This document shows positions 4,219 to 19,498 of a stretch of 64,000 bases of DNA, one piece after another. Position numbers and translations under genes: made by a program. Origin of the DNA: Acidobacteriota bacterium (GTDB lineage Bacteria > Acidobacteriota > UBA890 > WLXD01); NCBI GenBank assembly GCA_963666055.2, contig CAXWPH010000015.1:384001-448000 (forward strand), given 5' to 3'. The first letter of the stretch is position 1. Every line of letters starts with the position of its first letter. The notes beneath the pieces are model-generated. The model was not told where the DNA came from, did not search any database, and saw only the letters and a list, made by a program, of their open reading frames with translations.

Positions 4219-6321
4219 GTGATGAGGCTCGGACACCACAAGACACTCTTGGTTTACCTGGTGGTCATCTTGGCCGGTCTCGCGGCTGCGAAGGCGTTGA
4301 TGGCGCATGGCAGTGAGGCCCGTCTGGTCAAGCTCATGCCATGGCAAAAGGAGCGGGTTGTCCGGGTGCTGGCGGCGGAGCGCTCCGAGCTCGGGGTGCG
4401 GGGCTCCGATCGACGCATCGAGATGATGACGATCGGCGACCGATCCTGCGTTGCGGGGCCGGTCATCGCCTTGGACGTCGACGATGACTACGCCTTCGAT
4501 ATCGACGAGCCGGTCTATCTGACGCTCACCTATGTCCCGGAGCTCACGGCGCCGTTCACCGTCGGCTGGGACCAGAACGGCGGTGCAGGCGTCGGCGTCT
4601 CGGAGCGCATCGAGCCACAGCTGGGAGGCATGTTCCGCCGCCTGACGCTGACCCTCGATCGCGCCCGTCTGGCCGGCCAGGGTCTCCGACGCACCGACAT
4701 CGCGGTCGGCGGGCAGGGTGGCATCGTGCTCTGCGACGTCGAGATCGTGCGCAGCGACAGCACCGTGACGCCGACGGCGTTTGGCCGCTTGCAGCTAAAG
4801 GTGACGGACGTCGGCTCAGAACGCCCGATCCCGGCACGGGTGGGGGTGTACGACTCGACCGGTCGTGCGCCGCTGCCGTCGGAGCAGGCGCTGTTGGTGC
4901 ATCGATTCACCGACGAGGTCCGTCTCGTCTGGGTCAATGGCAGAACGCTGTGGCCGTCGGACAACCGTCAGGCCTTCTATGTGAACGGCGACTACGAGGC
5001 TCGTTTGCCGGTGGGTACCTACGAGCTGGTGCTTACGCGAGGACCCGAATACCGTGTGGCGCGTCGCAGCTTCGAAGTTCGGGAGGACGACACCAGCAGG
5101 GTAACCGTGGCGTTGGAACGCTACGCAGATCTGCCGGCCCGCGGCTGGTTCTCCGGTGACTCCCACGTTCATATCCAGCGACACAAGGTCGACGACGAGG
5201 CCGTCTGGGGGCAACTGGCAGCCGAGGACGTTCATGTCGCCAACCTGCTGGAGATGGGCAACATCAGCGGTACTCATTTCAAGCAACCCGCCTGGGGCGA
5301 GGAGGGCCGCTTCGGACGCGATAGCTACATGCTGGTCTCCGGCCAGGAAGATCCGCGCACCGTACAGCGCGGCCACACAATCCATCACAATCTCTACCGC
5401 CCCTTCCATCAGGACCCGGACTCCTACTTCCTCTACCATCGCGTCTTCGAGGAGTCGCACCGCCAGGGGGGTATTTCGGGGTACGCGCACCTCGGGCAAC
5501 TGTTCAACGGCCGGCGGGGACTCGCCTTGGATGTCCCCTTCGGGATCGTCGACTTCATCGAGGTGCTGCAGGGCGGGCGTCTGTTCGGCGACATCTGGTA
5601 CAGCTTCTTGAACCTCGGCTTCAAGGTATTGCCGGTCGCGGGCGCCGATTTCCCGTACTTCGGACCGACCTTGCCGGGGGTCGAGCGCACCTACGTCAAG
5701 CTGGATGGCCCGTTCAGCGTCGACGCGTTCTTCGACGCCTTCCTGCGTGGGCGGGTATTCGTCAGCAACGGCCCGTTCTTGGAGTTCACCGTGAACGGCC
5801 ATGAGATCGGCGAGGAGCTACGGGTCGAGCGTGGTACCCGGCTGCAGATCGAGGCCGAAGCCTCGCTCAACCCGGATGTCGACCAGCTCGACCGCTTGGA
5901 GCTGTTGGTTCATGGTGAGGTGGTGACGTCGGTGCCGGCGGGCGGACGAGATCGTGTGCGGCTGCGCACGGAGATCACCGCCGATCGCAGCATGTGGCTC
6001 GCTGTTCGCGCCCTGGGGCAGCGCCAGGAGCGCCGCGACACGATCGTCGCTCACAGCGCCGCCACCGTCGTCATCGTCGATGACGAGCCCTTCTGGAAAC
6101 CGGAGGCCGTCCCCGAGCTGGTGGCGCTGCAACGCGCCCAATTGCAGGAGCTGATGACGGCACGGATCGCGCCGGATGACGATCTGGAGCCCTGGGAGAC
6201 TCGTTACTTATTGCTGCAACAGTGGGAGCGACAACGCTTGCTGCTGGAGGCTAGGGTGGAAGAGGCCGACGCGCGCTACGGCGATCTGCTGGAGCGCGTC
6301 CGGGCATCGTCGCGGCGTTAG
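4219..6321 (+). CDS. CehA/McbA family metallohydrolase
   Basis: GWFSGDSHVH, GYAH, FxxGRVFVSNGP, AHS motifs; carboxypeptidase-regulatory-like domain (RGPEYR). Confidence 0.85.
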   Translation: MMRLGHHKTLLVYLVVILAGLAAAKALMAHGSEARLVKLMPWQKERVVRVLAAERSELGVRGSDRRIEMMTIGDRSCVAGPVIALDVDDDYAFDIDEPVYLTLTYVPELTAPFTVGWDQNGGAGVGVSERIEPQLGGMFRRLTLTLDRARLAGQGLRRTDIAVGGQGGIVLCDVEIVRSDSTVTPTAFGRLQLKVTDVGSERPIPARVGVYDSTGRAPLPSEQALLVHRFTDEVRLVWVNGRTLWPSDNRQAFYVNGDYEARLPVGTYELVLTRGPEYRVARRSFEVREDDTSRVTVALERYADLPARGWFSGDSHVHIQRHKVDDEAVWGQLAAEDVHVANLLEMGNISGTHFKQPAWGEEGRFGRDSYMLVSGQEDPRTVQRGHTIHHNLYRPFHQDPDSYFLYHRVFEESHRQGGISGYAHLGQLFNGRRGLALDVPFGIVDFIEVLQGGRLFGDIWYSFLNLGFKVLPVAGADFPYFGPTLPGVERTYVKLDGPFSVDAFFDAFLRGRVFVSNGPFLEFTVNGHEIGEELRVERGTRLQIEAEASLNPDVDQLDRLELLVHGEVVTSVPAGGRDRVRLRTEITADRSMWLAVRALGQRQERRDTIVAHSAATVVIVDDEPFWKPEAVPELVALQRAQLQELMTARIAPDDDLEPWETRYLLLQQWERQRLLLEARVEEADARYGDLLERVRASSRR

Positions 6322-6398: not shown

Positions 6399-8132
6399 AT
6401 GAATCGCGGCCCCATGAATCGGACCTCGGACCTTATTTTCCGCCTCACCGTCATCCTGGGAGCTGCCGTCTCGCTGACCGTCGCCGGATCCCTGATAGGC
6501 TCCGCATCGCCCGCTTCTCAGGGAGCCCAGCGTCTCGACGTGCTGATCAAGGGGGGACGTGTCTTTGACGGCAGCGGCAACCCGTGGATCCGCGCCGACG
6601 TGGGCGTGCGCGACGGCAGGATCACCGCGATCGGCGACCTCTCCGACGCCGACGCGGCGCGTGTCATCGACGCCGCCGGTATGGCGGTGGCCCCCGGCTT
6701 CATCGACATCCACAGCCATTCGGACGGCACTCTGCCTGTCGATGGCACGGGGCAAAGCAAGGTTCGCCAGGGGGTAACGTTGGATGTCGGCGGCGAGCGA
6801 TCGTCGGTAGCGCCACTTGCCGGCGAAGTACTGGAGGAACGCCGGCGCAGCGCCCGAAGCCAGGGCTACGATCTCGACTGGACCGATCTCGGCGGTTACT
6901 TCGAGCACCTGCTGCGTAAGGGCATCTCGCTCAACGTCGCCATCAAGGTGGCACCTCAGCAGATCAAGCGCATCGTCGTCGGTGGGAGCGTCGAGCAGGC
7001 TGCCAGCCCCGAACAGCTGGAGCGCATGAAGCAGCTGATCATCGAGGCGATGCACGACGGCGCCATCGGCATCGCCAGCTGGTTCCGCGGTGGCGGCTAT
7101 CGCTTCGCCGAAGAAATGATCCCGATGGCGCAGGCGGCGGTAGACCATGGCGCCGTGGTCTATGAAACGCATGTCGGAAGCGAGGGCTACCAGCTCGAGG
7201 AAGAGCTGCAGAAAGCGATCGACATCGTCGAGCAGACGGGCTTGCCGGTGAGCATTGCCCACTTCAAGATTCGCGGCCGCGCCATCTGGGATCGCCTGGA
7301 GCCTGCCATCCGCATGATCGAGGATGCGCGAGAGCGCGGCCTCGACATCACCGCCAACCAGTACCCCTACACGGCGATGACGCAGGGGTGGTCCAACTTC
7401 TTCCCGACCTGGGCGCGAGAGACGGAGGAGCTCGAGGAGCTCCTCGGGAGCACCGCCAACCGCGACCGTATCCGCAACGATCCTGAATGGATCCAGTACT
7501 TCGAGGAGCACGGCGGTATCGAGGGCGTCGTCCTGTGCTGTCTTCGAAACGACAGCCCGGTCAAGCAATACGACGGCATGAGCGTGGCGCAGATCGCCGC
7601 GCAGCGTGGTGACCCGGACCCGATCAACGCCCTCTTCGAGGTGGTCATGGAGAACGGTCGCTTCCCGGGCGGCATCCACCACAACCAATCGGAGGAGAAC
7701 GTTCGTCGCATCATGGCGCTTCCGTGGGTGGCGATCGCTTCCGACGGGTGGGCGGTGCGTCCCGACGGCGTTCTGGGTGAAGGGGTCGTGCACCCTCGCC
7801 TCTACGGCACCTTCCCGCGGGTGTTGGGACGCTACGTGCGCGACCAACCGCTGCTGACCTTGGCAGACGCGATCCGCAAGATGACCTCACTGCCGGCTCA
7901 GGTTCTGCGGCTCGAGGATAGGGGCCGATTGCTGCCAGGCTATTGGGCCGACGTCGTCGTCTTCGACCCGGGAACGGTCATCGACGTGGCGACCTACGAG
8001 GAGCCGCACCAGTACTCGATCGGCATCGACTATGTGCTGGTCAACGGGGTCGTTGTCATCGACGACGGAGAGCACACCGGTGCACGGCCCGGACGACCGG
8101 TTTATGGGCCCGGAAGACAAGCCACGCATTGA
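6399..8132 (+). CDS. N-acyl-D-amino-acid deacylase (D-aminoacylase) family amidohydrolase, secreted
   Basis: PGFIDIHSHSD, HPRLYGTFPRVLG, DRGRLLPGYWADVVVFD; AGGAGG RBS before ATG 6399. Confidence 0.9.
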   Translation: MNRGPMNRTSDLIFRLTVILGAAVSLTVAGSLIGSASPASQGAQRLDVLIKGGRVFDGSGNPWIRADVGVRDGRITAIGDLSDADAARVIDAAGMAVAPGFIDIHSHSDGTLPVDGTGQSKVRQGVTLDVGGERSSVAPLAGEVLEERRRSARSQGYDLDWTDLGGYFEHLLRKGISLNVAIKVAPQQIKRIVVGGSVEQAASPEQLERMKQLIIEAMHDGAIGIASWFRGGGYRFAEEMIPMAQAAVDHGAVVYETHVGSEGYQLEEELQKAIDIVEQTGLPVSIAHFKIRGRAIWDRLEPAIRMIEDARERGLDITANQYPYTAMTQGWSNFFPTWARETEELEELLGSTANRDRIRNDPEWIQYFEEHGGIEGVVLCCLRNDSPVKQYDGMSVAQIAAQRGDPDPINALFEVVMENGRFPGGIHHNQSEENVRRIMALPWVAIASDGWAVRPDGVLGEGVVHPRLYGTFPRVLGRYVRDQPLLTLADAIRKMTSLPAQVLRLEDRGRLLPGYWADVVVFDPGTVIDVATYEEPHQYSIGIDYVLVNGVVVIDDGEHTGARPGRPVYGPGRQATH

Positions 8133-8285: not shown

Positions 8286-9836
8286 ATGGACAAGAAGAGC
8301 GATAAGAACGACAAGCGTACCGAGCGAAAGAAGGTCAGCCGTCGTGACTTCGCCAAGACGTCGGTTGCGGCAGGAGCCGCTGCGGTGGCGCTTCCCAAGG
8401 CGCTGCGTGCCGAGGCGTTAGCGGGGAAGGGAACGTCGACGGCAGCGAAGGCGCCGGCAGCCGCGGCGCGGGGCCCGATCACGATGCCGCCCGAGGTGTC
8501 GTATGGCGGCCTCGATTTCGACGGTCGCGATGTGCTGCTGGAGGAAATCCTGTCGCCGCCCGGGGAAGCGCCGAACTATCCAGGAGGATGGCAGGAGGGG
8601 ACTACGCTCCCGGCTGAGTACTACCTCGATGAGAAGCACTGGCTCAACGAGGAGCGCTTTCTCCGCGAGCACTTCTGGTTCATGGCCGACCACGAGAGCC
8701 GCATCGCCAATCCCGGCGACTACTTCCTCTTCGAGTTCGGGCGTGGCGACAGCGTCATCATCGCGCGTGCCGAAGACGGTTCCGTGAAGGCCCACCACAA
8801 CGTCTGTCGACACCGCGGATCGCGGATCTGCCTGCACGACCAGAACCTGCCCGGGTCGGCGAGGTCGGACGGCAAGCCGGAGGACCCGCGGCTGTCGGTA
8901 GTACAACAGGGACCGAGCGGTAACACGGCGGTCTTTCGTTGCCCCTATCACTCCTGGACCTACGATCTCGACGGCAAGCTGATCTCGTTCCCGACCGGCA
9001 TGCCGGAGGGATTCGACGAGAACCAGCACGGCCTGCACCCGGCCCACGTGCGTGTGGTCGAAGGCTTCATCTTCGTCAGCCTGGCTGACCAGGAACCGAA
9101 GGGGTTCGACAAGTTCGTGGCCAACTGGCGACGTGTCTGCCAGTTCTACGGAACCGCGGGTATGAAAGTAGCGGCTCGCATACAGCACCCGACGAAGGCC
9201 AACTGGAAGCTGGCGATCGAGAACTTCGAGGAGTGCTATCACTGCGAGCCAGCGCACAAGTCGCTGGTAGAGGTGCAGTGGTGGCAGCGCAAGCACGTGC
9301 TGAGCGACGAGCAAGTTGCCGACATCGAGCAGGAGTTGGCACGTCACCAGCACCCGGACGAGCAACAGCGGAAGGGGGCGGCAGGGGTACGGGAGGACAC
9401 TTACACGATGAGCGTCCACCTGGCTCCCGGCTACGTGACCGGCAGCCTCGATGGTAAGCCGGTGGCGCCGCTCTTGCTCGATGAGTGGACCCATATGCGG
9501 CGCGGCGCCACGACCGGCTTCTCGACGTCGTTCTTCGCCGCCTACGACGACCACATCGCGGTCGCCCGGTTCACCCCGCGAGACATCGTGATGACCGATG
9601 TCGAGATCTTCTGGCTGGTCAAAGGCGACGCCAAGGACGATGAGGTAGATGTGGAGCGCATGATGGAGCTCTGGGACATCACCTACCGGGAGGATCTGTG
9701 GATCGTCGAGAACAACCAGCACGGGATCCGGAACAGCCGCTACAACTACGCCGGCGGACAGCCGTACGCCCGGCGTGAAGGCGGACCCGCGGGATTCATC
9801 AAGTGGTATATGACCGAGATAGCACCCCACGCTTGA
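8286..9836 (+). CDS. Rieske non-heme iron oxygenase alpha subunit (GbcA/choline monooxygenase-like) with Tat signal
   Basis: CRH...CPYH Rieske motif; ENFEECYHC...H and ED mononuclear iron motif; N-terminal SRRDFAK followed by a hydrophobic stretch. Confidence 0.9.
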   Translation: MDKKSDKNDKRTERKKVSRRDFAKTSVAAGAAAVALPKALRAEALAGKGTSTAAKAPAAAARGPITMPPEVSYGGLDFDGRDVLLEEILSPPGEAPNYPGGWQEGTTLPAEYYLDEKHWLNEERFLREHFWFMADHESRIANPGDYFLFEFGRGDSVIIARAEDGSVKAHHNVCRHRGSRICLHDQNLPGSARSDGKPEDPRLSVVQQGPSGNTAVFRCPYHSWTYDLDGKLISFPTGMPEGFDENQHGLHPAHVRVVEGFIFVSLADQEPKGFDKFVANWRRVCQFYGTAGMKVAARIQHPTKANWKLAIENFEECYHCEPAHKSLVEVQWWQRKHVLSDEQVADIEQELARHQHPDEQQRKGAAGVREDTYTMSVHLAPGYVTGSLDGKPVAPLLLDEWTHMRRGATTGFSTSFFAAYDDHIAVARFTPRDIVMTDVEIFWLVKGDAKDDEVDVERMMELWDITYREDLWIVENNQHGIRNSRYNYAGGQPYARREGGPAGFIKWYMTEIAPHA

Positions 9837-9846
9837 GGAGAAAGCC

Positions 9847-11811
9847 GTGACCGACCGCGACCTCGGAATGCTCCGCGACATCACCCGACGGGATTTCGTC
9901 AGCGGTGTCAGCGTTGCCATCGGCGGTGCGCTGGCGCTGCCAGCCAGACTACGCGCCGCTGGCATGACGCAGGCCTACGCGCCCGAGAAGGCGGCAGGCT
10001 ACTACCCGCCGGCCCGCACCGGCATGCGCGGCTCGCATCCTGGCTCGTTCGAAGCGGCGCACGCCGCCCGCGACGGGATGAGGTTTGATGGAGCCGAAGA
10101 CACCGGCGAGACCTACGACCTGATCGTCGTCGGTGCCGGCCTCAGTGGTCTGGCTGCAGCGTACTTCTTCCGCAAGGCGACGAGCCCCGACGCCCGCATC
10201 CTGATCCTCGAGAACCACGACGACTTCGGGGGCCACGCCAAGCGCAACGAGTTCGAGCACGATGGCGACGTGCTGCTCGCCACCGGCGGTACCGTCTTCA
10301 TGGTGCAACCGGAGCGCTACCCGCAACCGGCGCGCGAGATGCTCGAGGACATCGGCGTCGAGCTGGATCATCCGACCAACAACGTTCATCGAGGGATGTT
10401 CAGGGCATCGGGGCTGGAGCCGGCCGTTTTCTTTCACGAGGAGAGCTTCGGGAAAGACGTCCTGGTCAGCGGCAGCGTCAGACGGCCCAGCGAGGAGTTC
10501 CTCGCCAAGACGCCGCTCTCCGAGTCGGTTCGTCGGGACTTGCTGCGGCTCTGGAACGACCAGCGCGACTACCTGCCGGGGTTGTCGAGGGCGGAGAAGG
10601 TCGAGCGGCTGCAGCGCACTAGCTATCGCGACTACCTGCTCGATCTGGTCAAAGTAGATCCGGACGTGCTGCCGCTGGTGGGTGGAGTCTGGTGTCTGGG
10701 GGCCGATACCTCGAGCGCCTGGTTCGCCCTCTATCGTGGCCTGCCGGGTTTCGCAGGACTGGGGATCCCGATTCCGGCGGAGTCGCCGGCGCTCTCCGAG
10801 AACGTCAAGACGGATGTCTACTTCCCCGCCGGTAACTCCGACATCGCGCGGATGATCGTGCGTTCGCTGATCCCGGCGGCCCTGCCGGCCGGGTCGATGG
10901 CGGACGTCGAGTTGCGGCGAACCGATTACTCGAGGCTCGATGAGCCGCGATCGCCGGTGCGCCTGCGGCTCAACAGCGCCGCCGTAGGGGTACGCCATAT
11001 CGGCGACCCACGGGAGGTTCTGAGCTCGGACCCCCGCGAGACGGAGGTCACCTACGTCCGCGGCGGCAAGGCCTACCGGGCGCGAGGCAAGGGCTGTGTG
11101 CTGGCCTGCTACCACACCATGATCCCGCACCTGTGCCCGGAGCTTCCGAACAAGCAGAAAGACGCGCTGAGCCTCGCTGCACGGGCCGTCCAGATGTACA
11201 CCAACGTCCTGGTGCGCGACTGGCGGGCGTTCGAGGAGCTCGGAGTGTCGACCATCTCGTGTCCGGGCTCGTTCTACAGCGCCATCCGTCCCCGCGCACC
11301 ACACACGCTGGGGACCTACGATCCACCACGCTCGCCGGCGGACCCGATCATCGTCTCGCTGAGCGATGCTGGAGGAGTGCTCTCCTGGGAGCCGATGGTT
11401 CGCGGCCTACGCGGCGGAGAACCGATTCCACCGGGCACCCCGGTTCGCGATCAGATGCGAGCGGTGCGACAGGCGCTCCTGGAAAACTCGTTCGAGGACT
11501 TCGAACGGCGCATTCGCGAGCAGATGGCGCGGGTGCTATCGCCGGCGGGCTTCGACCCGGCGCGCGATATCGAGGCCATCATGGTCAACCGCTGGCCGCA
11601 CGGCTACGCCCTGGCGACCAACACGCTCTTCGATCCGGAATGGGCTCCCGGCGAGGAGCCCTGGCTCGTCGCCAGTCAGCCGTTCGGGCGGATCACGATC
11701 GCCAACACGGATGCCTCGGGAATCGACCTCACCCAGACCGCCTTCGACGAGGCACACCGTGCAGTCGGGGAGCTCATGCAGATGCGCCACGGCTGGTTCC
11801 CGCGCATCTGA
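9847..11811 (+). CDS. Spermidine dehydrogenase (SpdH)-like FAD oxidoreductase with Tat signal
   Basis: ITRRDFVSG, YYPPARTGMRGSHPGSFE, VVGAGLSGLAAA, DFGGHAKRNEF, VNRWPHGYA. Confidence 0.85.
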   Translation: MTDRDLGMLRDITRRDFVSGVSVAIGGALALPARLRAAGMTQAYAPEKAAGYYPPARTGMRGSHPGSFEAAHAARDGMRFDGAEDTGETYDLIVVGAGLSGLAAAYFFRKATSPDARILILENHDDFGGHAKRNEFEHDGDVLLATGGTVFMVQPERYPQPAREMLEDIGVELDHPTNNVHRGMFRASGLEPAVFFHEESFGKDVLVSGSVRRPSEEFLAKTPLSESVRRDLLRLWNDQRDYLPGLSRAEKVERLQRTSYRDYLLDLVKVDPDVLPLVGGVWCLGADTSSAWFALYRGLPGFAGLGIPIPAESPALSENVKTDVYFPAGNSDIARMIVRSLIPAALPAGSMADVELRRTDYSRLDEPRSPVRLRLNSAAVGVRHIGDPREVLSSDPRETEVTYVRGGKAYRARGKGCVLACYHTMIPHLCPELPNKQKDALSLAARAVQMYTNVLVRDWRAFEELGVSTISCPGSFYSAIRPRAPHTLGTYDPPRSPADPIIVSLSDAGGVLSWEPMVRGLRGGEPIPPGTPVRDQMRAVRQALLENSFEDFERRIREQMARVLSPAGFDPARDIEAIMVNRWPHGYALATNTLFDPEWAPGEEPWLVASQPFGRITIANTDASGIDLTQTAFDEAHRAVGELMQMRHGWFPRI

Positions 11812-12478: not shown

Positions 12479-13204
12479 TCAACGCTTGTTCCAGATGTCG
12501 ATGACCTCGGTATGCCCCACCAGCGTAGCGTTGTCACCGATGTACAGCATCGCGTCCTCGGCGCGAGCCGGATCCGTCGGCACGATGGCGTCCTTGATGG
12601 CAACCGTGCGGTAGCCGAGGCTGCGGGCGGTCTGCATCGTCGGCACCACGCCGACCTCGGCGCCTACCCCGACGATGACGATGGTGGTGATTCGATTCCA
12701 CCGCAGCAACGCATCGAGTGCAGTGGCAATGAACGCGTCCGGCCGGTACTTCCTGAGCACCCAGTCATTGACCTCTGGCGCTATCTCCTCTGGGTTTTCC
12801 CAACCCCAGGTGCCCTCGTGGGTCGAGATCGTCGACGGTGGTCCAGTGTTGCTGGGCCTGTCGCCCGGTCGCCCATAGGTCGACCCGTCCGGATAGGAGG
12901 TCCAGCGAACATAGGCAACCCGTACGTTGTTTGCTCGCGCCGCAGCCAGCAGCTCGACCATCGGGTCCATGATGCCGGTGACGTCGATGCGGCGCCCGCT
13001 GATGTCGAACGTTCCGCCCTCCGAGACGAAGGCGTTGAGCACTTCGTGGACGAGAAGAACCGTGTGTTCTGGACGCAGCAGCTCTTCGAGCTCCGGACCC
13101 GACGGTGCTTGAACGCTCCCTCGCGCTCCCGCCGCCGGCATGTAGCCGAGCACGACGACCAGCAGGGCAAGGGTCGTTATCCGGATTCCTGGCCTGCGTC
13201 TCAT
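12479..13204 (-). CDS. Isochorismatase/cysteine hydrolase family protein with signal peptide
   Basis: LRPEHTVLLV, GTWGWE, KYRPDAFIATALD, VGVGAEVGV; AGGAGG RBS before ATG 13204. Confidence 0.8.
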   Translation of the reverse strand: MRRRPGIRITTLALLVVVLGYMPAAGARGSVQAPSGPELEELLRPEHTVLLVHEVLNAFVSEGGTFDISGRRIDVTGIMDPMVELLAAARANNVRVAYVRWTSYPDGSTYGRPGDRPSNTGPPSTISTHEGTWGWENPEEIAPEVNDWVLRKYRPDAFIATALDALLRWNRITTIVIVGVGAEVGVVPTMQTARSLGYRTVAIKDAIVPTDPARAEDAMLYIGDNATLVGHTEVIDIWNKR

Positions 13205-15127: not shown

Positions 15128-17089
15128 ATGAGATGGAGCCAGCTGGCCGCGCGCTCCAACACCGACGTCGCCGCTCCGCAGGCGAGGGCGGAGATCGTCG
15201 CGCTGCTGGTCGAGCATGGGGGTGGCACCGAGGGCGAGGCACTCGTTGACCTCATCCGGACGGGCTACCTCGATGCGGTGCGGACGATCGTCGGGCGAGG
15301 CAGCGCCAACCCATCGTATCTGAACGCGGCGCTCGGCGCGGCACGCAGCAACCAGCATACTGAGCTGGCAGCGTTCCTCGTCGCAGCGGGCGCGCAAGAG
15401 CCGACAGCGGTGGATCGCGTCTACACAGCAGAGCGACTGGAGCGACTCGAGGGCGTCTATCGGGCTCAGAGCGGGGAGACGGTGGCGCTCCGGAGGGGCT
15501 CCGAGGACGGCGAGCTCGTCCTCGAACGGACCGATCGTGGCGACATGACGCTCGTGCCGGCCAATCTGACCATCTTGCGATCTCTCGACCGAACGGCGGT
15601 TGTCGAGCTGCGCGGAGGAGCCCTGCCAGCGTCCGAGTTGGTGTTGTCCGAAGGAGATCAGTCCGAGGTATTCCTATGGACCGCCCCGGTCGACGAACGG
15701 CCGAAAGCCGCCCCGGTCAACGACCGTGCCATGAATCGGCCCGGCGCGCCCCCGCCAGTGTCCGGCGCCCGGGAGTGGTCTTCGTTCCGCGGTCCCGGCG
15801 GTTCGGGCGTCGCCGATGGGACCGACCTGCCAACCGAGTGGGACGTGGAGCGGGGGGTCAACGTTGTCTGGAAGACGCCGATTCCGGGGCTCGGTCATTC
15901 GAGCCCGATTATCTGGGGCAACCGAGTGTTCATCACGACCGCCGTCCCGAGCGCGGATGCGGTTGCGACCTTCCGGAACTTCTCGGAGGTCGTACGCTCC
16001 GGGGTCCTCGCGTACGTCAAGGAGGACGTGCGGTATTCGTGGCGGGTGATCGCGCTCGACAAGAATAACGGTGAGCTGCTCTGGGAGCGGGTGGCGCGCG
16101 AAGCGGTGCCACGCACGGCACGTCACGTCATGGCCTCGCATGCCAACCAGACGCCGGCCACGGACGGTACGCACGTTGTGGCGTGGTTCGGGTCCGAAGG
16201 CGTCTACTGTTATGACGTCGATGGCAACCTGCTGTGGTCCAAGGACCTCGGCCCGCTCCCATCGGGTCGCTACTTCGATCCGGGATACCAGTGGAACACC
16301 GCGAGCTCGCCCATCATCTACAAGAATCTGGTGATCCTCCAGGCGGACGGGATCGACGAGGCGTATCTCTTGGCGCTCGATATCACGACGGGCGAGGTGG
16401 TCTGGCGTACCGAACGTGATGAACACCCGTCCTGGCCAACGCCCTTCATCTACGAAGGCGCCACACGCATCGAGCTGGTCACCGCCGCCATCAGATTCGC
16501 GCGCGGCTACGACCCCGACACGGGCCAAGAGCTCTGGAGGCTCGGCCTGCACGGCGACTTTCCGACACCCACACCGATTGCCGGCCGTGGGCTGATCTTC
16601 ATCATGAGTGGGTACGGCACGGTCGAGCCCATCTACGCTATCCGTCCCGGCGCCAACGGCGACATCACGCTGGCTGACAACGAAACCTTCAATGACTCGG
16701 TCGCCTGGAGCAAACGGCGGGGGGGGCGGGGGGGGGGGGGGGGGGGGGCGGTCATCCCAACGCCGATCGTCTATGGAGACCTGCTGTATGTCTGCCGGGC
16801 CGGCGGTATCCTGGCCGCCTATCAGGTGGAGACCGGAGAGCGTGTTTATCAGGCGCGGATCACCCGGGGCGGCAACTACTCGGCGTCCCCCGTGGCGGCT
16901 GACGGCAAGATCTATTTCGCCAACGAGGACGGAGAAGTGATCGTCGTCAAGGCCGGTCCGAAGTTCGAACGCCTGGCGGTCAATCAGATGGGCGAGCCGC
17001 TCATGGCAACCCCGGCGATTGCCCATGGGATGATCATCTTCCGCATGCAGGAGCACGTCGTCGCGATCGCCCTGGGCTCAGCTGAGTAG
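15128..17089 (+). CDS. PQQ-like beta-propeller repeat protein with ankyrin-like N-terminal remnant
   Basis: WSSFRGPGGSG, WKTPIPGLGHSSPIIWG, YSASPVAADGKIY, MATPAI; start position uncertain. Confidence 0.8.
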   Translation: MRWSQLAARSNTDVAAPQARAEIVALLVEHGGGTEGEALVDLIRTGYLDAVRTIVGRGSANPSYLNAALGAARSNQHTELAAFLVAAGAQEPTAVDRVYTAERLERLEGVYRAQSGETVALRRGSEDGELVLERTDRGDMTLVPANLTILRSLDRTAVVELRGGALPASELVLSEGDQSEVFLWTAPVDERPKAAPVNDRAMNRPGAPPPVSGAREWSSFRGPGGSGVADGTDLPTEWDVERGVNVVWKTPIPGLGHSSPIIWGNRVFITTAVPSADAVATFRNFSEVVRSGVLAYVKEDVRYSWRVIALDKNNGELLWERVAREAVPRTARHVMASHANQTPATDGTHVVAWFGSEGVYCYDVDGNLLWSKDLGPLPSGRYFDPGYQWNTASSPIIYKNLVILQADGIDEAYLLALDITTGEVVWRTERDEHPSWPTPFIYEGATRIELVTAAIRFARGYDPDTGQELWRLGLHGDFPTPTPIAGRGLIFIMSGYGTVEPIYAIRPGANGDITLADNETFNDSVAWSKRRGGRGGGGGGAVIPTPIVYGDLLYVCRAGGILAAYQVETGERVYQARITRGGNYSASPVAADGKIYFANEDGEVIVVKAGPKFERLAVNQMGEPLMATPAIAHGMIIFRMQEHVVAIALGSAE

Positions 17090-19498
17090 GCGTTCACTAT
17101 TGGGGTCGTAAAGCGGCTGCTCGACGACCTGTGCGGAACGGCGCTCGCCGAGGATGCCTACCTCCAACTCGGTGCCAGGCTCGATGTAAGCGATCGGCAA
17201 GTAGGCGAAGCCGATCGACTTCTGAACGCTATGGCCATAGCCGCCCGACGCGATGTAGGCGATCGGTTTTCCGTCTGCGTAGATCGGCTCAAAGCCACGT
17301 GCATCCGCGTCATCGGCGTCGATGACGAGACCGGCGAGCTGGCGATCAACGCCTTTCTTCTTCTGCTCGAGGAGCGCGTCGCGGCCGATGAAATCGCCCT
17401 TCTCGAAATCGACGAAACGCTCCATTCCAGCCTGCAGCGGTGTCCAGTCCGCCGACATATCCGCTCCCCAGAGCCGGTACGCCTTCTCGAGCCGCATCGA
17501 CTCGAGCGCCCGATATCCCCAATCGACGATCCCGTACTGTGCACCCTCCTTCATCAACAGATCGTAGAGGTAACGCTGATATTCCATGGGTGTGTGCAGC
17601 TCGTAGCCGAGCTCACCGACGAATGAGACTCGCAACACCCTTACCGGCACTTTGTCGACGTGCAACTGCTTGCAACGGAAGAACCGGAACGCCTGATTGG
17701 AAATGTCGGTGTTGGTGAGCGGTTGGATGAGATCGCGTGACCGGGGTCCCGCCACCGTCAGGGTTGTAATGCTGCTGGTCGTGTTCACCAGGCTTACGCT
17801 GCCGTCGTCGGGCAGGTGGCGCTCGATCCACGCATGGTCGTGGAGCTCTGTCGCGGCGGCTGAGACGACATAGTAGTGACCCTCGGCGAGCCTGGTCACT
17901 GTTACATCGCATTCGATACCACCTTTCGGAGTGCACATCTGCGTCAGCGCGATGCGGCCGTCGCTCTTTGGAAGCCTGTTGGCGCAGAGGCGGTCGAGGA
18001 AGCTCTCGGCGCCTGGTCCCGAGACCTCGTACTTCGCAAAGCTCGACTGGTCGAGTACGCCGACGGTCGATCGAACCGCAGCGCACTCCTTGCCTACCGC
18101 ATCGTGCCAGTTTCCACGACGAAACGAATACTCGTCGCGCCTCGGTCCGTCCGGGTCAAACCACAGCGGACGCTCCCACCCGAATCGGGCGCCGAAGACG
18201 GCTCCCTTGGCGAGCAGTCGATCGTAGAGTGGATCCGTCTTCAAAGGCCGGCCAGCCGGGAGCTCCTCTTCGGGATAGTGAATCGCGTATTCGCGCCGAT
18301 AGACCTCGAGCGCACGTTCCGAGATGTAGCTGGAGGAGGCCGCGTAGTCATCGAACCGCCGCACGTCGAGCTCCCACATGTTGTCGCTCGGCTGTCCATC
18401 GACGATCCACTCCGCGGCGTATTTCCCAGCGCCACCACCAAAAACGATGCCGAAGATGCTGAAGCCCGCCAGGACGTGAAAGTTCGGCAGGCCCGGTACC
18501 GGACCCATGAGGCAGTGACCATCCGGCGTGTAACCGTCGGGTCCGTTGACGATGGTCTCGATCGGTGCATCAGCGAATATGGAAATGCGTTCGGCGCAGC
18601 CGAGGAGAGACTCTTCGAGGCGATCGGGCGCTGGCCTGAGCAGACAGCTGTGAAAATCGTCTGGGATTCCGTCGCCCCCCCATGTCACGGTGTCGTGCTC
18701 GAAGGGGCCGACGAGCAGAGCGCCCTCCTCCTCTCGAACGTAGAACGATGAATCGGGATCCCTCAGTACGGGCAACTCGCTGGTGAGGGCCTGCACCTCT
18801 TTCAGTGCCGTGGTGACGAGGTAATGGTGCTCGAGGGAAACAATCGGCAGGTCCAGTCCGACGAGGCGACCGATCTGTCTCGCCCATTGGCCCGCCGCAT
18901 TAACGATCACATCGGTACGGATCTCGCCCTTCGTCGTCTTCACGAGCCAACCATCACCATCTCGCTCGATCGCCGTTACCCCCGCGTGCCGGTGGATTTC
19001 GGCCCCCTCTGCCGTTGCTCCGCTGGCCAGCGCCCGGGTGACGCCAGAGGGATCCACGTGGCCATCGGTCGGAATGTGAGCGATGGCAAGCGCATCGTCG
19101 AAGTTCGCAAGCGGGAAGAGCTCGTGAGCTTGCGCGGGAGTGATGATGTTGAACGGAATACCGAGTGTCTCGGCGATGCCCTTACGGTTGTTGAACTCGT
19201 CGAGACGATCCTCTGTCGTGCCGATCCGGAGGCTGCCGCACTGATGGAAGTCGACCGCCTGTCCGGTTTCGGCCTCGAGCCGCTTGTACAGATCGATGCT
19301 GTACTGGAGGAGTTTCATCAAGTTCCAGCTCGAGATCATCTGCGTGCACAGACCCGCTGCGTGCCACGTCGAGCCGCTCGTCAGCTCGTCCTTTTCGACC
19401 AGGACAACGTTCTTCCATCCCAGCTTCGTCAGGTGATAGAGAACACTGCAGCCTGCTATCCCTCCTCCGATGACCACCGCTTGCGCTTCGTTTCGCAC
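17078..19498 (-). CDS. Dimethylglycine/sarcosine dehydrogenase-like GcvT family FAD oxidoreductase
   Basis: VIGGGIAGCS, LTSGSTWHAAG, NGPDGYTPDG, SFVGELGYELH, GcvT C-terminal domain. Confidence 0.9.
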   Translation of the reverse strand: MRNEAQAVVIGGGIAGCSVLYHLTKLGWKNVVLVEKDELTSGSTWHAAGLCTQMISSWNLMKLLQYSIDLYKRLEAETGQAVDFHQCGSLRIGTTEDRLDEFNNRKGIAETLGIPFNIITPAQAHELFPLANFDDALAIAHIPTDGHVDPSGVTRALASGATAEGAEIHRHAGVTAIERDGDGWLVKTTKGEIRTDVIVNAAGQWARQIGRLVGLDLPIVSLEHHYLVTTALKEVQALTSELPVLRDPDSSFYVREEEGALLVGPFEHDTVTWGGDGIPDDFHSCLLRPAPDRLEESLLGCAERISIFADAPIETIVNGPDGYTPDGHCLMGPVPGLPNFHVLAGFSIFGIVFGGGAGKYAAEWIVDGQPSDNMWELDVRRFDDYAASSSYISERALEVYRREYAIHYPEEELPAGRPLKTDPLYDRLLAKGAVFGARFGWERPLWFDPDGPRRDEYSFRRGNWHDAVGKECAAVRSTVGVLDQSSFAKYEVSGPGAESFLDRLCANRLPKSDGRIALTQMCTPKGGIECDVTVTRLAEGHYYVVSAAATELHDHAWIERHLPDDGSVSLVNTTSSITTLTVAGPRSRDLIQPLTNTDISNQAFRFFRCKQLHVDKVPVRVLRVSFVGELGYELHTPMEYQRYLYDLLMKEGAQYGIVDWGYRALESMRLEKAYRLWGADMSADWTPLQAGMERFVDFEKGDFIGRDALLEQKKKGVDRQLAGLVIDADDADARGFEPIYADGKPIAYIASGGYGHSVQKSIGFAYLPIAYIEPGTELEVGILGERRSAQVVEQPLYDPNSERLLS

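Follow-up and report, generated by a model that had tools for sequence, protein, structure and literature searches.

A group V-type Rieske oxygenase with a twin-arginine leader and its SpdH-like neighbour: a putative periplasmic amine-dealkylation module in Acidobacteriota

In a 64,000-nt stretch of an Acidobacteriota genome (assembly GCA_963666055.2, contig CAXWPH010000015.1, positions 384,001 to 448,000; hereafter the window), two adjacent genes encode a Rieske non-haem iron oxygenase and an SpdH-like dehydrogenase predicted to carry flavin adenine dinucleotide (FAD) and haem b. Comparison of the two proteins with their homologues suggests that both are exported, and that the oxygenase may receive its electrons from haem proteins in the periplasm. 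The pair comprises the following features.

8286..9836, + strand: alpha subunit of a Rieske non-haem iron oxygenase, group V (quaternary-amine) type, 516 aa, with the Pfam domains Rieske and Ring_hydroxyl_A
8286..8411, + strand: N-terminus of the oxygenase (residues 1-42), a putative twin-arginine leader in which SRRDFAK precedes a run of 13 uncharged residues and a basic c-region
8838..8915, + strand: clade-specific insertion between the two Rieske cluster-binding boxes, about residues 185-210, placed by box spacing and the structural model
9837..9846, + strand: spacer of 10 nt with a GGAG ribosome-binding site, read from the sequence
9847..11811, + strand: SpdH-like FAD/haem b amine dehydrogenase, 654 aa, GTG start, matching PDB 7d9i with E 1e-122
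9847..9957, + strand: putative twin-arginine leader of the flavoprotein, residues 1-37, with TRRDFV; TIGR01409 at 16.9 bits, above the cut-off

An initial annotation of this DNA had described intact CxH/CxxH and iron motifs in the oxygenase and a TRRDF flavoprotein starting 10 nt after it. Both statements are accurate: all ligands are present in the reading frame 8286-9836, and the flavoprotein, which has T13-R-R-D-F-V, follows after a gap of exactly 10 nt. A start of the oxygenase at GTG 8151 was rejected, since ATG 8286 is preceded by a ribosome-binding site and coincides with the starts of homologues. Two public runs, from two studies, one of them possibly the source of the assembly, each contain a single contig that reads through the gene junction (9700-10011) with no mismatch. 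The closest named records, with 85% and 77% identity, bear the title Acidobacteriota bacterium. A scan for promoters and terminators gave no signal above that of shuffled sequences.

The oxygenase has the Rieske ligands C174, H176, C219 and H222, the bridging E316 and the iron ligands H319, H324 and D470, all of them invariant in 32 rows of the clade defined below. A cysteine pair beside the iron site, C317/C320, was found in 120 of 120 homologues; a pair near the iron site is a group V feature (PMC10952381). The position of CntA Y203 is occupied by F314, and by Phe in 119 and Tyr in one of the 120 homologues. In PMC7948474, an aromatic residue there, binding quaternary ammonium by cation-pi contact, is given as the signature of group Va, with Phe in OxyBAC. 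This residue is not specific to the clade, because it also occurs in 66 of 82 relatives without a leader that served as controls. The nearest structures, both by sequence and by fold, are 3n0q and the stachydrine demethylase Stc2 (fold matches with E 9e-32 and 8e-31, respectively, for a model with a mean predicted local distance difference test score, pLDDT, of 79). The group V monooxygenases (Stc2, PDB 3vca and 4qup; the 3n0q protein; GbcA, CntA and OxyBAC) share with the oxygenase the fold, the Rieske and iron ligands and the bridging glutamate; in Stc2, which is 27-28% identical, C202/C205 match C317/C320 and W353 corresponds to W463. The Phe at the CntA Y203 position is as in OxyBAC of group Va, although the nearest structures belong to group Vb. 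Identity with GbcA (NF058607) was rejected, with 215.9 bits against a cut-off of 670 and Phe instead of Asn at position 203. Near clade members in other genomes there are genes for a homocysteine S-methyltransferase and for a fusion protein that its domains suggest to be carnitine-dehydrogenase-like, and this betaine-type context weakly backs a quaternary ammonium as substrate.

The SRRDFAK motif and hydrophobic stretch pointed out in the initial annotation are present, as S18-R-R-D-F-A-K followed by 13 uncharged residues and then KALRA. Among the best 120 of 2766 proteins passing E 1e-30, the RR pattern was matched in 116, two of which are internal matches without a hydrophobic stretch, leaving a leader in 114 of 120; three of the four homologues without an RR match begin inside the protein. 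All 16 oxygenase paralogues of the genome have the leader as well. In 32 diverse clade members R19 and R20 are invariant and F22 nearly so, whereas the flanking linker drifts. The hidden Markov model (HMM) for twin-arginine translocation (Tat) signals, TIGR01409, is borderline for the oxygenase, with 16.7 bits for the first 55 residues, which equals the cut-off, and 13.3 bits for the whole protein, and the motif deviates from S/T-R-R-x-F-L-K in having Ala for Leu. When 55-residue N-termini were searched, six of six SpdH leaders were listed, five of them over the cut-off, as opposed to none of three leaderless controls. A match of the oxygenase leader to SseI was rejected as a composition artefact (18.9 bits against a cut-off of 621). 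TatC is encoded in the genome (95.7% complete), and the great majority of the genes around clade oxygenases code for exported proteins, outer-membrane receptors or cytochromes c. On this comparative evidence, which supports the export first proposed for both proteins, the oxygenase is very probably exported, and the two proteins are predicted to cross the membrane folded via the Tat system. Export of the flavoprotein is ordinary, because SpdH of Pseudomonas aeruginosa has a similar leader; the unusual element is the export of the oxygenase, whose class normally operates in the cytoplasm at the expense of NAD(P)H.

Besides its main tat locus, the genome has a second and a third tatA, each together with the 5' part of tatC, at G000:C2:402129-402341 and G000:C15:1363044-1363259 (L003 and L034). 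They are 95-98% identical to the main locus and each adjoins SpdH-like genes, and a tatA of this type follows an oxygenase-SpdH pair in two other genomes (G004, L151; G002, L163). Possibly these copies provide added TatA for a heavy Tat traffic.

In a FastTree phylogeny with a midpoint root, the 60 leader-type oxygenase rows grouped together, with a support of 100 and a stem of 0.94, apart from 18 rows that have no leader. A second feature distinguishes this clade: the Rieske boxes are 32-45 residues apart in all members measured (50 loci, 119 homologues), in contrast to 14-17 residues in 81 leaderless controls, which corresponds to an insertion of 17-30 residues in every member measured. Relative to the known group V enzymes, the oxygenase adds a twin-arginine leader, a linker of about 60 residues and this insertion in the Rieske domain. 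Modelled at a pLDDT of about 85, the insertion lies beside the Rieske cluster and is a candidate docking surface for a donor other than ferredoxin. The clade was found in eight of 401 genomes of the phylum (three candidates scored per genome), five of them from the source genus, and at least five clade loci are among the 80 metagenome loci listed. In one metagenome contig (L054:4782-6935), an apparently frameshifted clade oxygenase with a cytochrome c has recR and a gene of carnitine-dehydrogenase-like type as neighbours. This surrounding looks proteobacterial, hinting that the clade has spread beyond Acidobacteriota; another locus, L043, is titled Candidatus Binatia.

The flavoprotein matches SpdH of P. 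aeruginosa (PDB 7d9i) over residues 12-643, in an alignment where the PDB sequence begins with ISRRDFLNG. It shares with that enzyme (PDB 7d9f-7d9j) the full length, the FAD-binding motif, a twin-arginine-like N-terminus and both haem b histidines, H64 and H585 aligning with His54 and His562, which are the haem b ligands of the P. aeruginosa protein (PMC12564564). Across the SpdH rows the first histidine is kept in 39 of 43, with two more gapped, and the second in 43 of 43. The two proteins are related by overall homology; what differs from P. aeruginosa is the number of genes or fragments in one genome (34) and the recurrent adjacency to an exported oxygenase. In a divergent paralogue at G000:C15:905276-907456, the first haem histidine is replaced by Thr, and this protein may be haem-free or an oxidase.

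Neighbours were compared in nine further genomes that carry the clade outside the source genus. In four of them (G258, G401, G402 and G508) an SpdH-like gene lies on the same strand within 600 bp of the oxygenase, with one small gene between the two in G508. In eight of the nine, the oxygenase is followed at no more than 250 bp by a gene for an exported monohaem cytochrome c (Pfam PF13442), which is co-directional in five genomes and convergent in the other three, and three of the four metagenome clade loci outside the genus have it too. These cytochromes, often with a lipoprotein-type signal, contain CxxCH as well as a distal Met that is conserved. In G258 a single gene row combines SpdH with two oxygenases and cytochrome c. 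Among the 82 leaderless control loci, many of them with short flanks, neither SpdH nor cytochrome c was found within 3 kb in any. The oxygenase of the window groups with that of locus L168 in G402 (support 93) and, in a quick tree, its SpdH groups with the G402 neighbour (99); likewise, the oxygenases of G508 and G401 group together (98), as do their SpdH neighbours (99). Eight oxygenase-SpdH pairs, among which kin are not independent, gave a Spearman coefficient of 0.34 (permutation p 0.038).

Within the source genome (4484 genes by our own gene caller), the oxygenase clade has 16 members, and the SpdH-like genes, fragments included, number 34. An SpdH-like gene is the next gene for seven of the 16 oxygenases. 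The corresponding share is 1.2% for other genes and 9.8% for the 522 genes that share islands with the oxygenases, and none of 69 other Tat-like genes has such a neighbour. The sequences thus support a pairing that is conserved and non-random, though not obligatory. All four other genomes of the genus have many copies, and in the six other genomes of the family that were searched no close full-length relative was found. A single unique operon is rejected by the number of paralogues; the module described in the initial annotation is one among these 16 oxygenase paralogues and 34 SpdH-like genes.

A sister oxygenase-SpdH pair is present as three near-identical recent copies (G000:C6:305099-306697, C2:337291-338889 and C2:405578-407176), one of which has a 2-nt gap near the 5' end of its SpdH gene. 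At G000:C14:455803-457838 (L016), a 90% identical SpdH-like copy is preceded by a remnant of the last 20 or so oxygenase codons: the whole pair was copied there, and its oxygenase gene disappeared afterwards. The 34 SpdH-like genes and fragments lie amid many exported amidohydrolases, M28 peptidases, pyrroloquinoline quinone (PQQ) proteins and TonB-like receptors. Together with these they would make up an extensive periplasmic set of proteins for handling amides and amines. The many paralogues would serve different amines.

As to the electron supply, no ferredoxin or reductase gene lies beside the pair in our gene calls for positions 1-30000 of the window, as the initial annotation had stated. 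This absence was discarded as evidence, since it is not diagnostic: a ferredoxin-type reductase motif, searched with a pattern that sees plant-type ferredoxin domains only, was found within 3 kb in 10 of the 82 leaderless relatives and in none of the other 72, and 26 of 31 leaderless loci with full 3-kb flanks lack it as well. In the whole genome only two genes have an NAD_binding_1 domain, one Fpr-like and one PyrK-like; there was no Reductase_C match, and no fusion of FNR with ferredoxin was found. The periplasm has no NAD(P)H, so an exported oxygenase would need another donor, and the sole conserved redox neighbours of the exported oxygenase are haem proteins. In SpdH, a haem b at the protein surface receives the electrons of the FAD, and cytochrome c can serve as acceptor (PMC12564564).

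According to these data, the pair may form a periplasmic module for amine dealkylation in which the haem of the SpdH-like protein supplies the oxygenase with electrons, directly or via cytochrome c, a donor role that the initial annotation had proposed for the dehydrogenase and that is plausible; we give this reading a probability of roughly 50%. The oxygenase would bind a quaternary or N-alkyl ammonium by cation-pi contact with F314 and spend O2 and two electrons on cleavage of a C-N bond. The dehydrogenase would oxidise an amine C-N bond, possibly that of the oxygenase product, sending two electrons from FAD to its surface haem b, and from there they would pass to the Rieske cluster, with or without a periplasmic cytochrome c pool in between, so that the pair would run without NAD(P)H. 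On chemical grounds a flavin dehydrogenase should be unable to oxidise a quaternary amine before the oxygenase has dealkylated it, and a closed two-electron cycle would therefore be possible. A stronger version, in which haem proteins have replaced the NAD(P)H reductase chain and a new docking loop allows a redox self-sufficient dealkylation cycle, deployed as dozens of paralogues in some Acidobacteriota, is put forward tentatively, as possible rather than probable.

Several observations weigh against electron transfer from the SpdH-like protein to an exported oxygenase. Three genomes, G061 (100% complete), G347 (92%) and G404, have the oxygenase and no SpdH match (query P0002, E 1e-40, searched in all nine outside genomes but G403). 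The co-occurrence of Tat-bearing Rieske proteins with SpdH-like genes raised at the outset thus holds as adjacency in four of the nine, fails in these three, and is less common than that with cytochrome c. Conversely, SpdH-like genes occur in 40 of the 401 phylum genomes and the oxygenase clade in eight. In the source genome, 27 of the 34 SpdH-like genes have no adjacent oxygenase and nine of the 16 oxygenases no adjacent SpdH, and at most five of the seven pairs are independent, because three are near-identical copies. Cytochrome c homologues (about 42-45% identity) exist there, none within 17 kb of an oxygenase. In the SpdH partner of the G402 sister oxygenase, Gly replaces the first of the two haem histidines. 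With 55-residue N-termini, TIGR01409 listed 13 of 21 clade oxygenases, of which three reached the cut-off, and the genome contains several unlinked ferredoxins besides the Fpr-like reductase. The potentials are a further point. According to PMC12564564, the current of SpdH on electrodes has its onset at -0.14 V versus Ag/AgCl. By our own conversion this is about +0.06 V versus the standard hydrogen electrode. The Rieske clusters of oxygenases lie at roughly -150 to +50 mV, and the driving force from SpdH to the Rieske cluster may therefore be small; a literature search for a measured Rieske potential of a group V enzyme yielded nothing usable.

Some of these points would be accommodated if both proteins were periplasmic but linked only as steps of one pathway, the oxygenase being fed by cytochrome c from the quinol pool or from other dehydrogenases, such as nearby PQQ enzymes, and the SpdH-like enzyme feeding respiration. 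The greater frequency of cytochrome c as neighbour outside the genus and the three genomes without SpdH match fit this explanation, as do the PQQ dehydrogenases and exported amidohydrolases frequently found as neighbours. However, SpdH is found tightly adjacent on the same strand in more than one subclade of the oxygenase, and the SpdH proteins fall into corresponding subclades; in the source genus it is SpdH, and not cytochrome c, that is adjacent. We consider this explanation rather unlikely.

It is improbable that the oxygenase is not exported at all, its catalytic domain staying in the cytoplasm or tethered inside the membrane and being driven by generic ferredoxin and the Fpr-like reductase. 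The Ala in the Tat motif and the few leaders at the HMM cut-off would be explained in this way, and the ferredoxins and Fpr of the genome, as well as the leaderless relatives that mostly lack a linked reductase, are compatible with it. Nevertheless, it does not account for an arginine pair that is invariant, with F22 nearly so, next to a drifting linker, nor for the great preponderance of exported proteins, outer-membrane receptors and cytochromes c among the neighbours.

More improbable is a peroxide shunt, in which the flavoprotein would act as an oxidase making H2O2 for the oxygenase, with no electron transfer between them. CntA, a group V enzyme, can oxidise its substrate with H2O2 in the absence of reductase (PMC7948474 and PMC10952381), and in one of the paired SpdH proteins the first haem ligand is missing. 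Yet nearly all SpdH rows have the haem ligands, as expected of a dehydrogenase, the Rieske ligands and bridging glutamate are invariant, and the cytochrome c partners would be left unexplained. Finally, a Rieske protein working as a net dehydrogenase or relay, from substrate or SpdH to cytochrome c and the respiratory chain, is the least probable case: the CxxCH and distal Met of the partner cytochromes agree with it, since class I cytochromes c with His/Met ligation generally accept electrons at a fairly high potential and would fit a flow away from the Rieske cluster, but the iron triad, bridging glutamate, cysteine pair and group V substrate-pocket residues are invariant, and we know of no Rieske alpha subunit that works in this manner.

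Compared with known group V systems, the module of exported oxygenase and SpdH-like dehydrogenase has haem-protein neighbours in place of a reductase and occurs in large paralogue arrays. A parallel is the supply of electrons to lytic polysaccharide monooxygenase by cellobiose dehydrogenase, where an extracytoplasmic FAD/haem b dehydrogenase feeds an oxygenase without NAD(P)H. It is an analogy of function only, as the proteins are unrelated, the metal is copper and not Rieske/iron, and the substrate is a polysaccharide and not an amine. The FAD and haem b of cellobiose dehydrogenase are mentioned in PMC12564564. According to a 2025 review, Rieske oxygenases require a flavin reductase and often a ferredoxin, and the word periplasm is absent from it (PMC12445004). 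No description of Tat-exported Rieske oxygenases, or of their supply by haem proteins, was found in the literature searched, outside of which most subscription journals lie. The oxygenase represents a genuine and conserved group V variant, apparently undescribed, which is likely periplasmic and haem-fed. If so, the exported clade would represent a new electron-supply scheme for Rieske oxygenases and would show that uncultured Acidobacteriota can degrade amines in the periplasm on a large scale. Biocatalysis and oxygenation driven by electrodes could also gain a route that needs no cofactor, as SpdH exchanges electrons directly with electrodes (PMC12564564).

Upstream of the pair lies one more gene of the same strand.

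6399..8132, + strand: amidohydrolase (D-aminoacylase-like) with a hydrophobic N-terminus, Pfam Amidohydro_3; NF006560 below the cut-off

An amidohydrolase gene has the same upstream position in the close relatives L035, L036 and L162. We regard it as context and at most as a possible part of the module. Further upstream (window 4222-6321, + strand) is a 699-residue, exported-looking protein with no Pfam match, found upstream in close relatives as well, whose His/Asp-rich motifs suggest a metallohydrolase. On the opposite strand, positions 12479-13204 encode an isochorismatase-family protein, kept in L035 and L162, with a signal-like N-terminus that is unusual for this mostly cytoplasmic family. 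At 17078-19498, also on the minus strand and 5 kb from the pair, there is a dimethylglycine-dehydrogenase-like flavoprotein with a GcvT domain, which fits a catabolism of methylamines or betaines.

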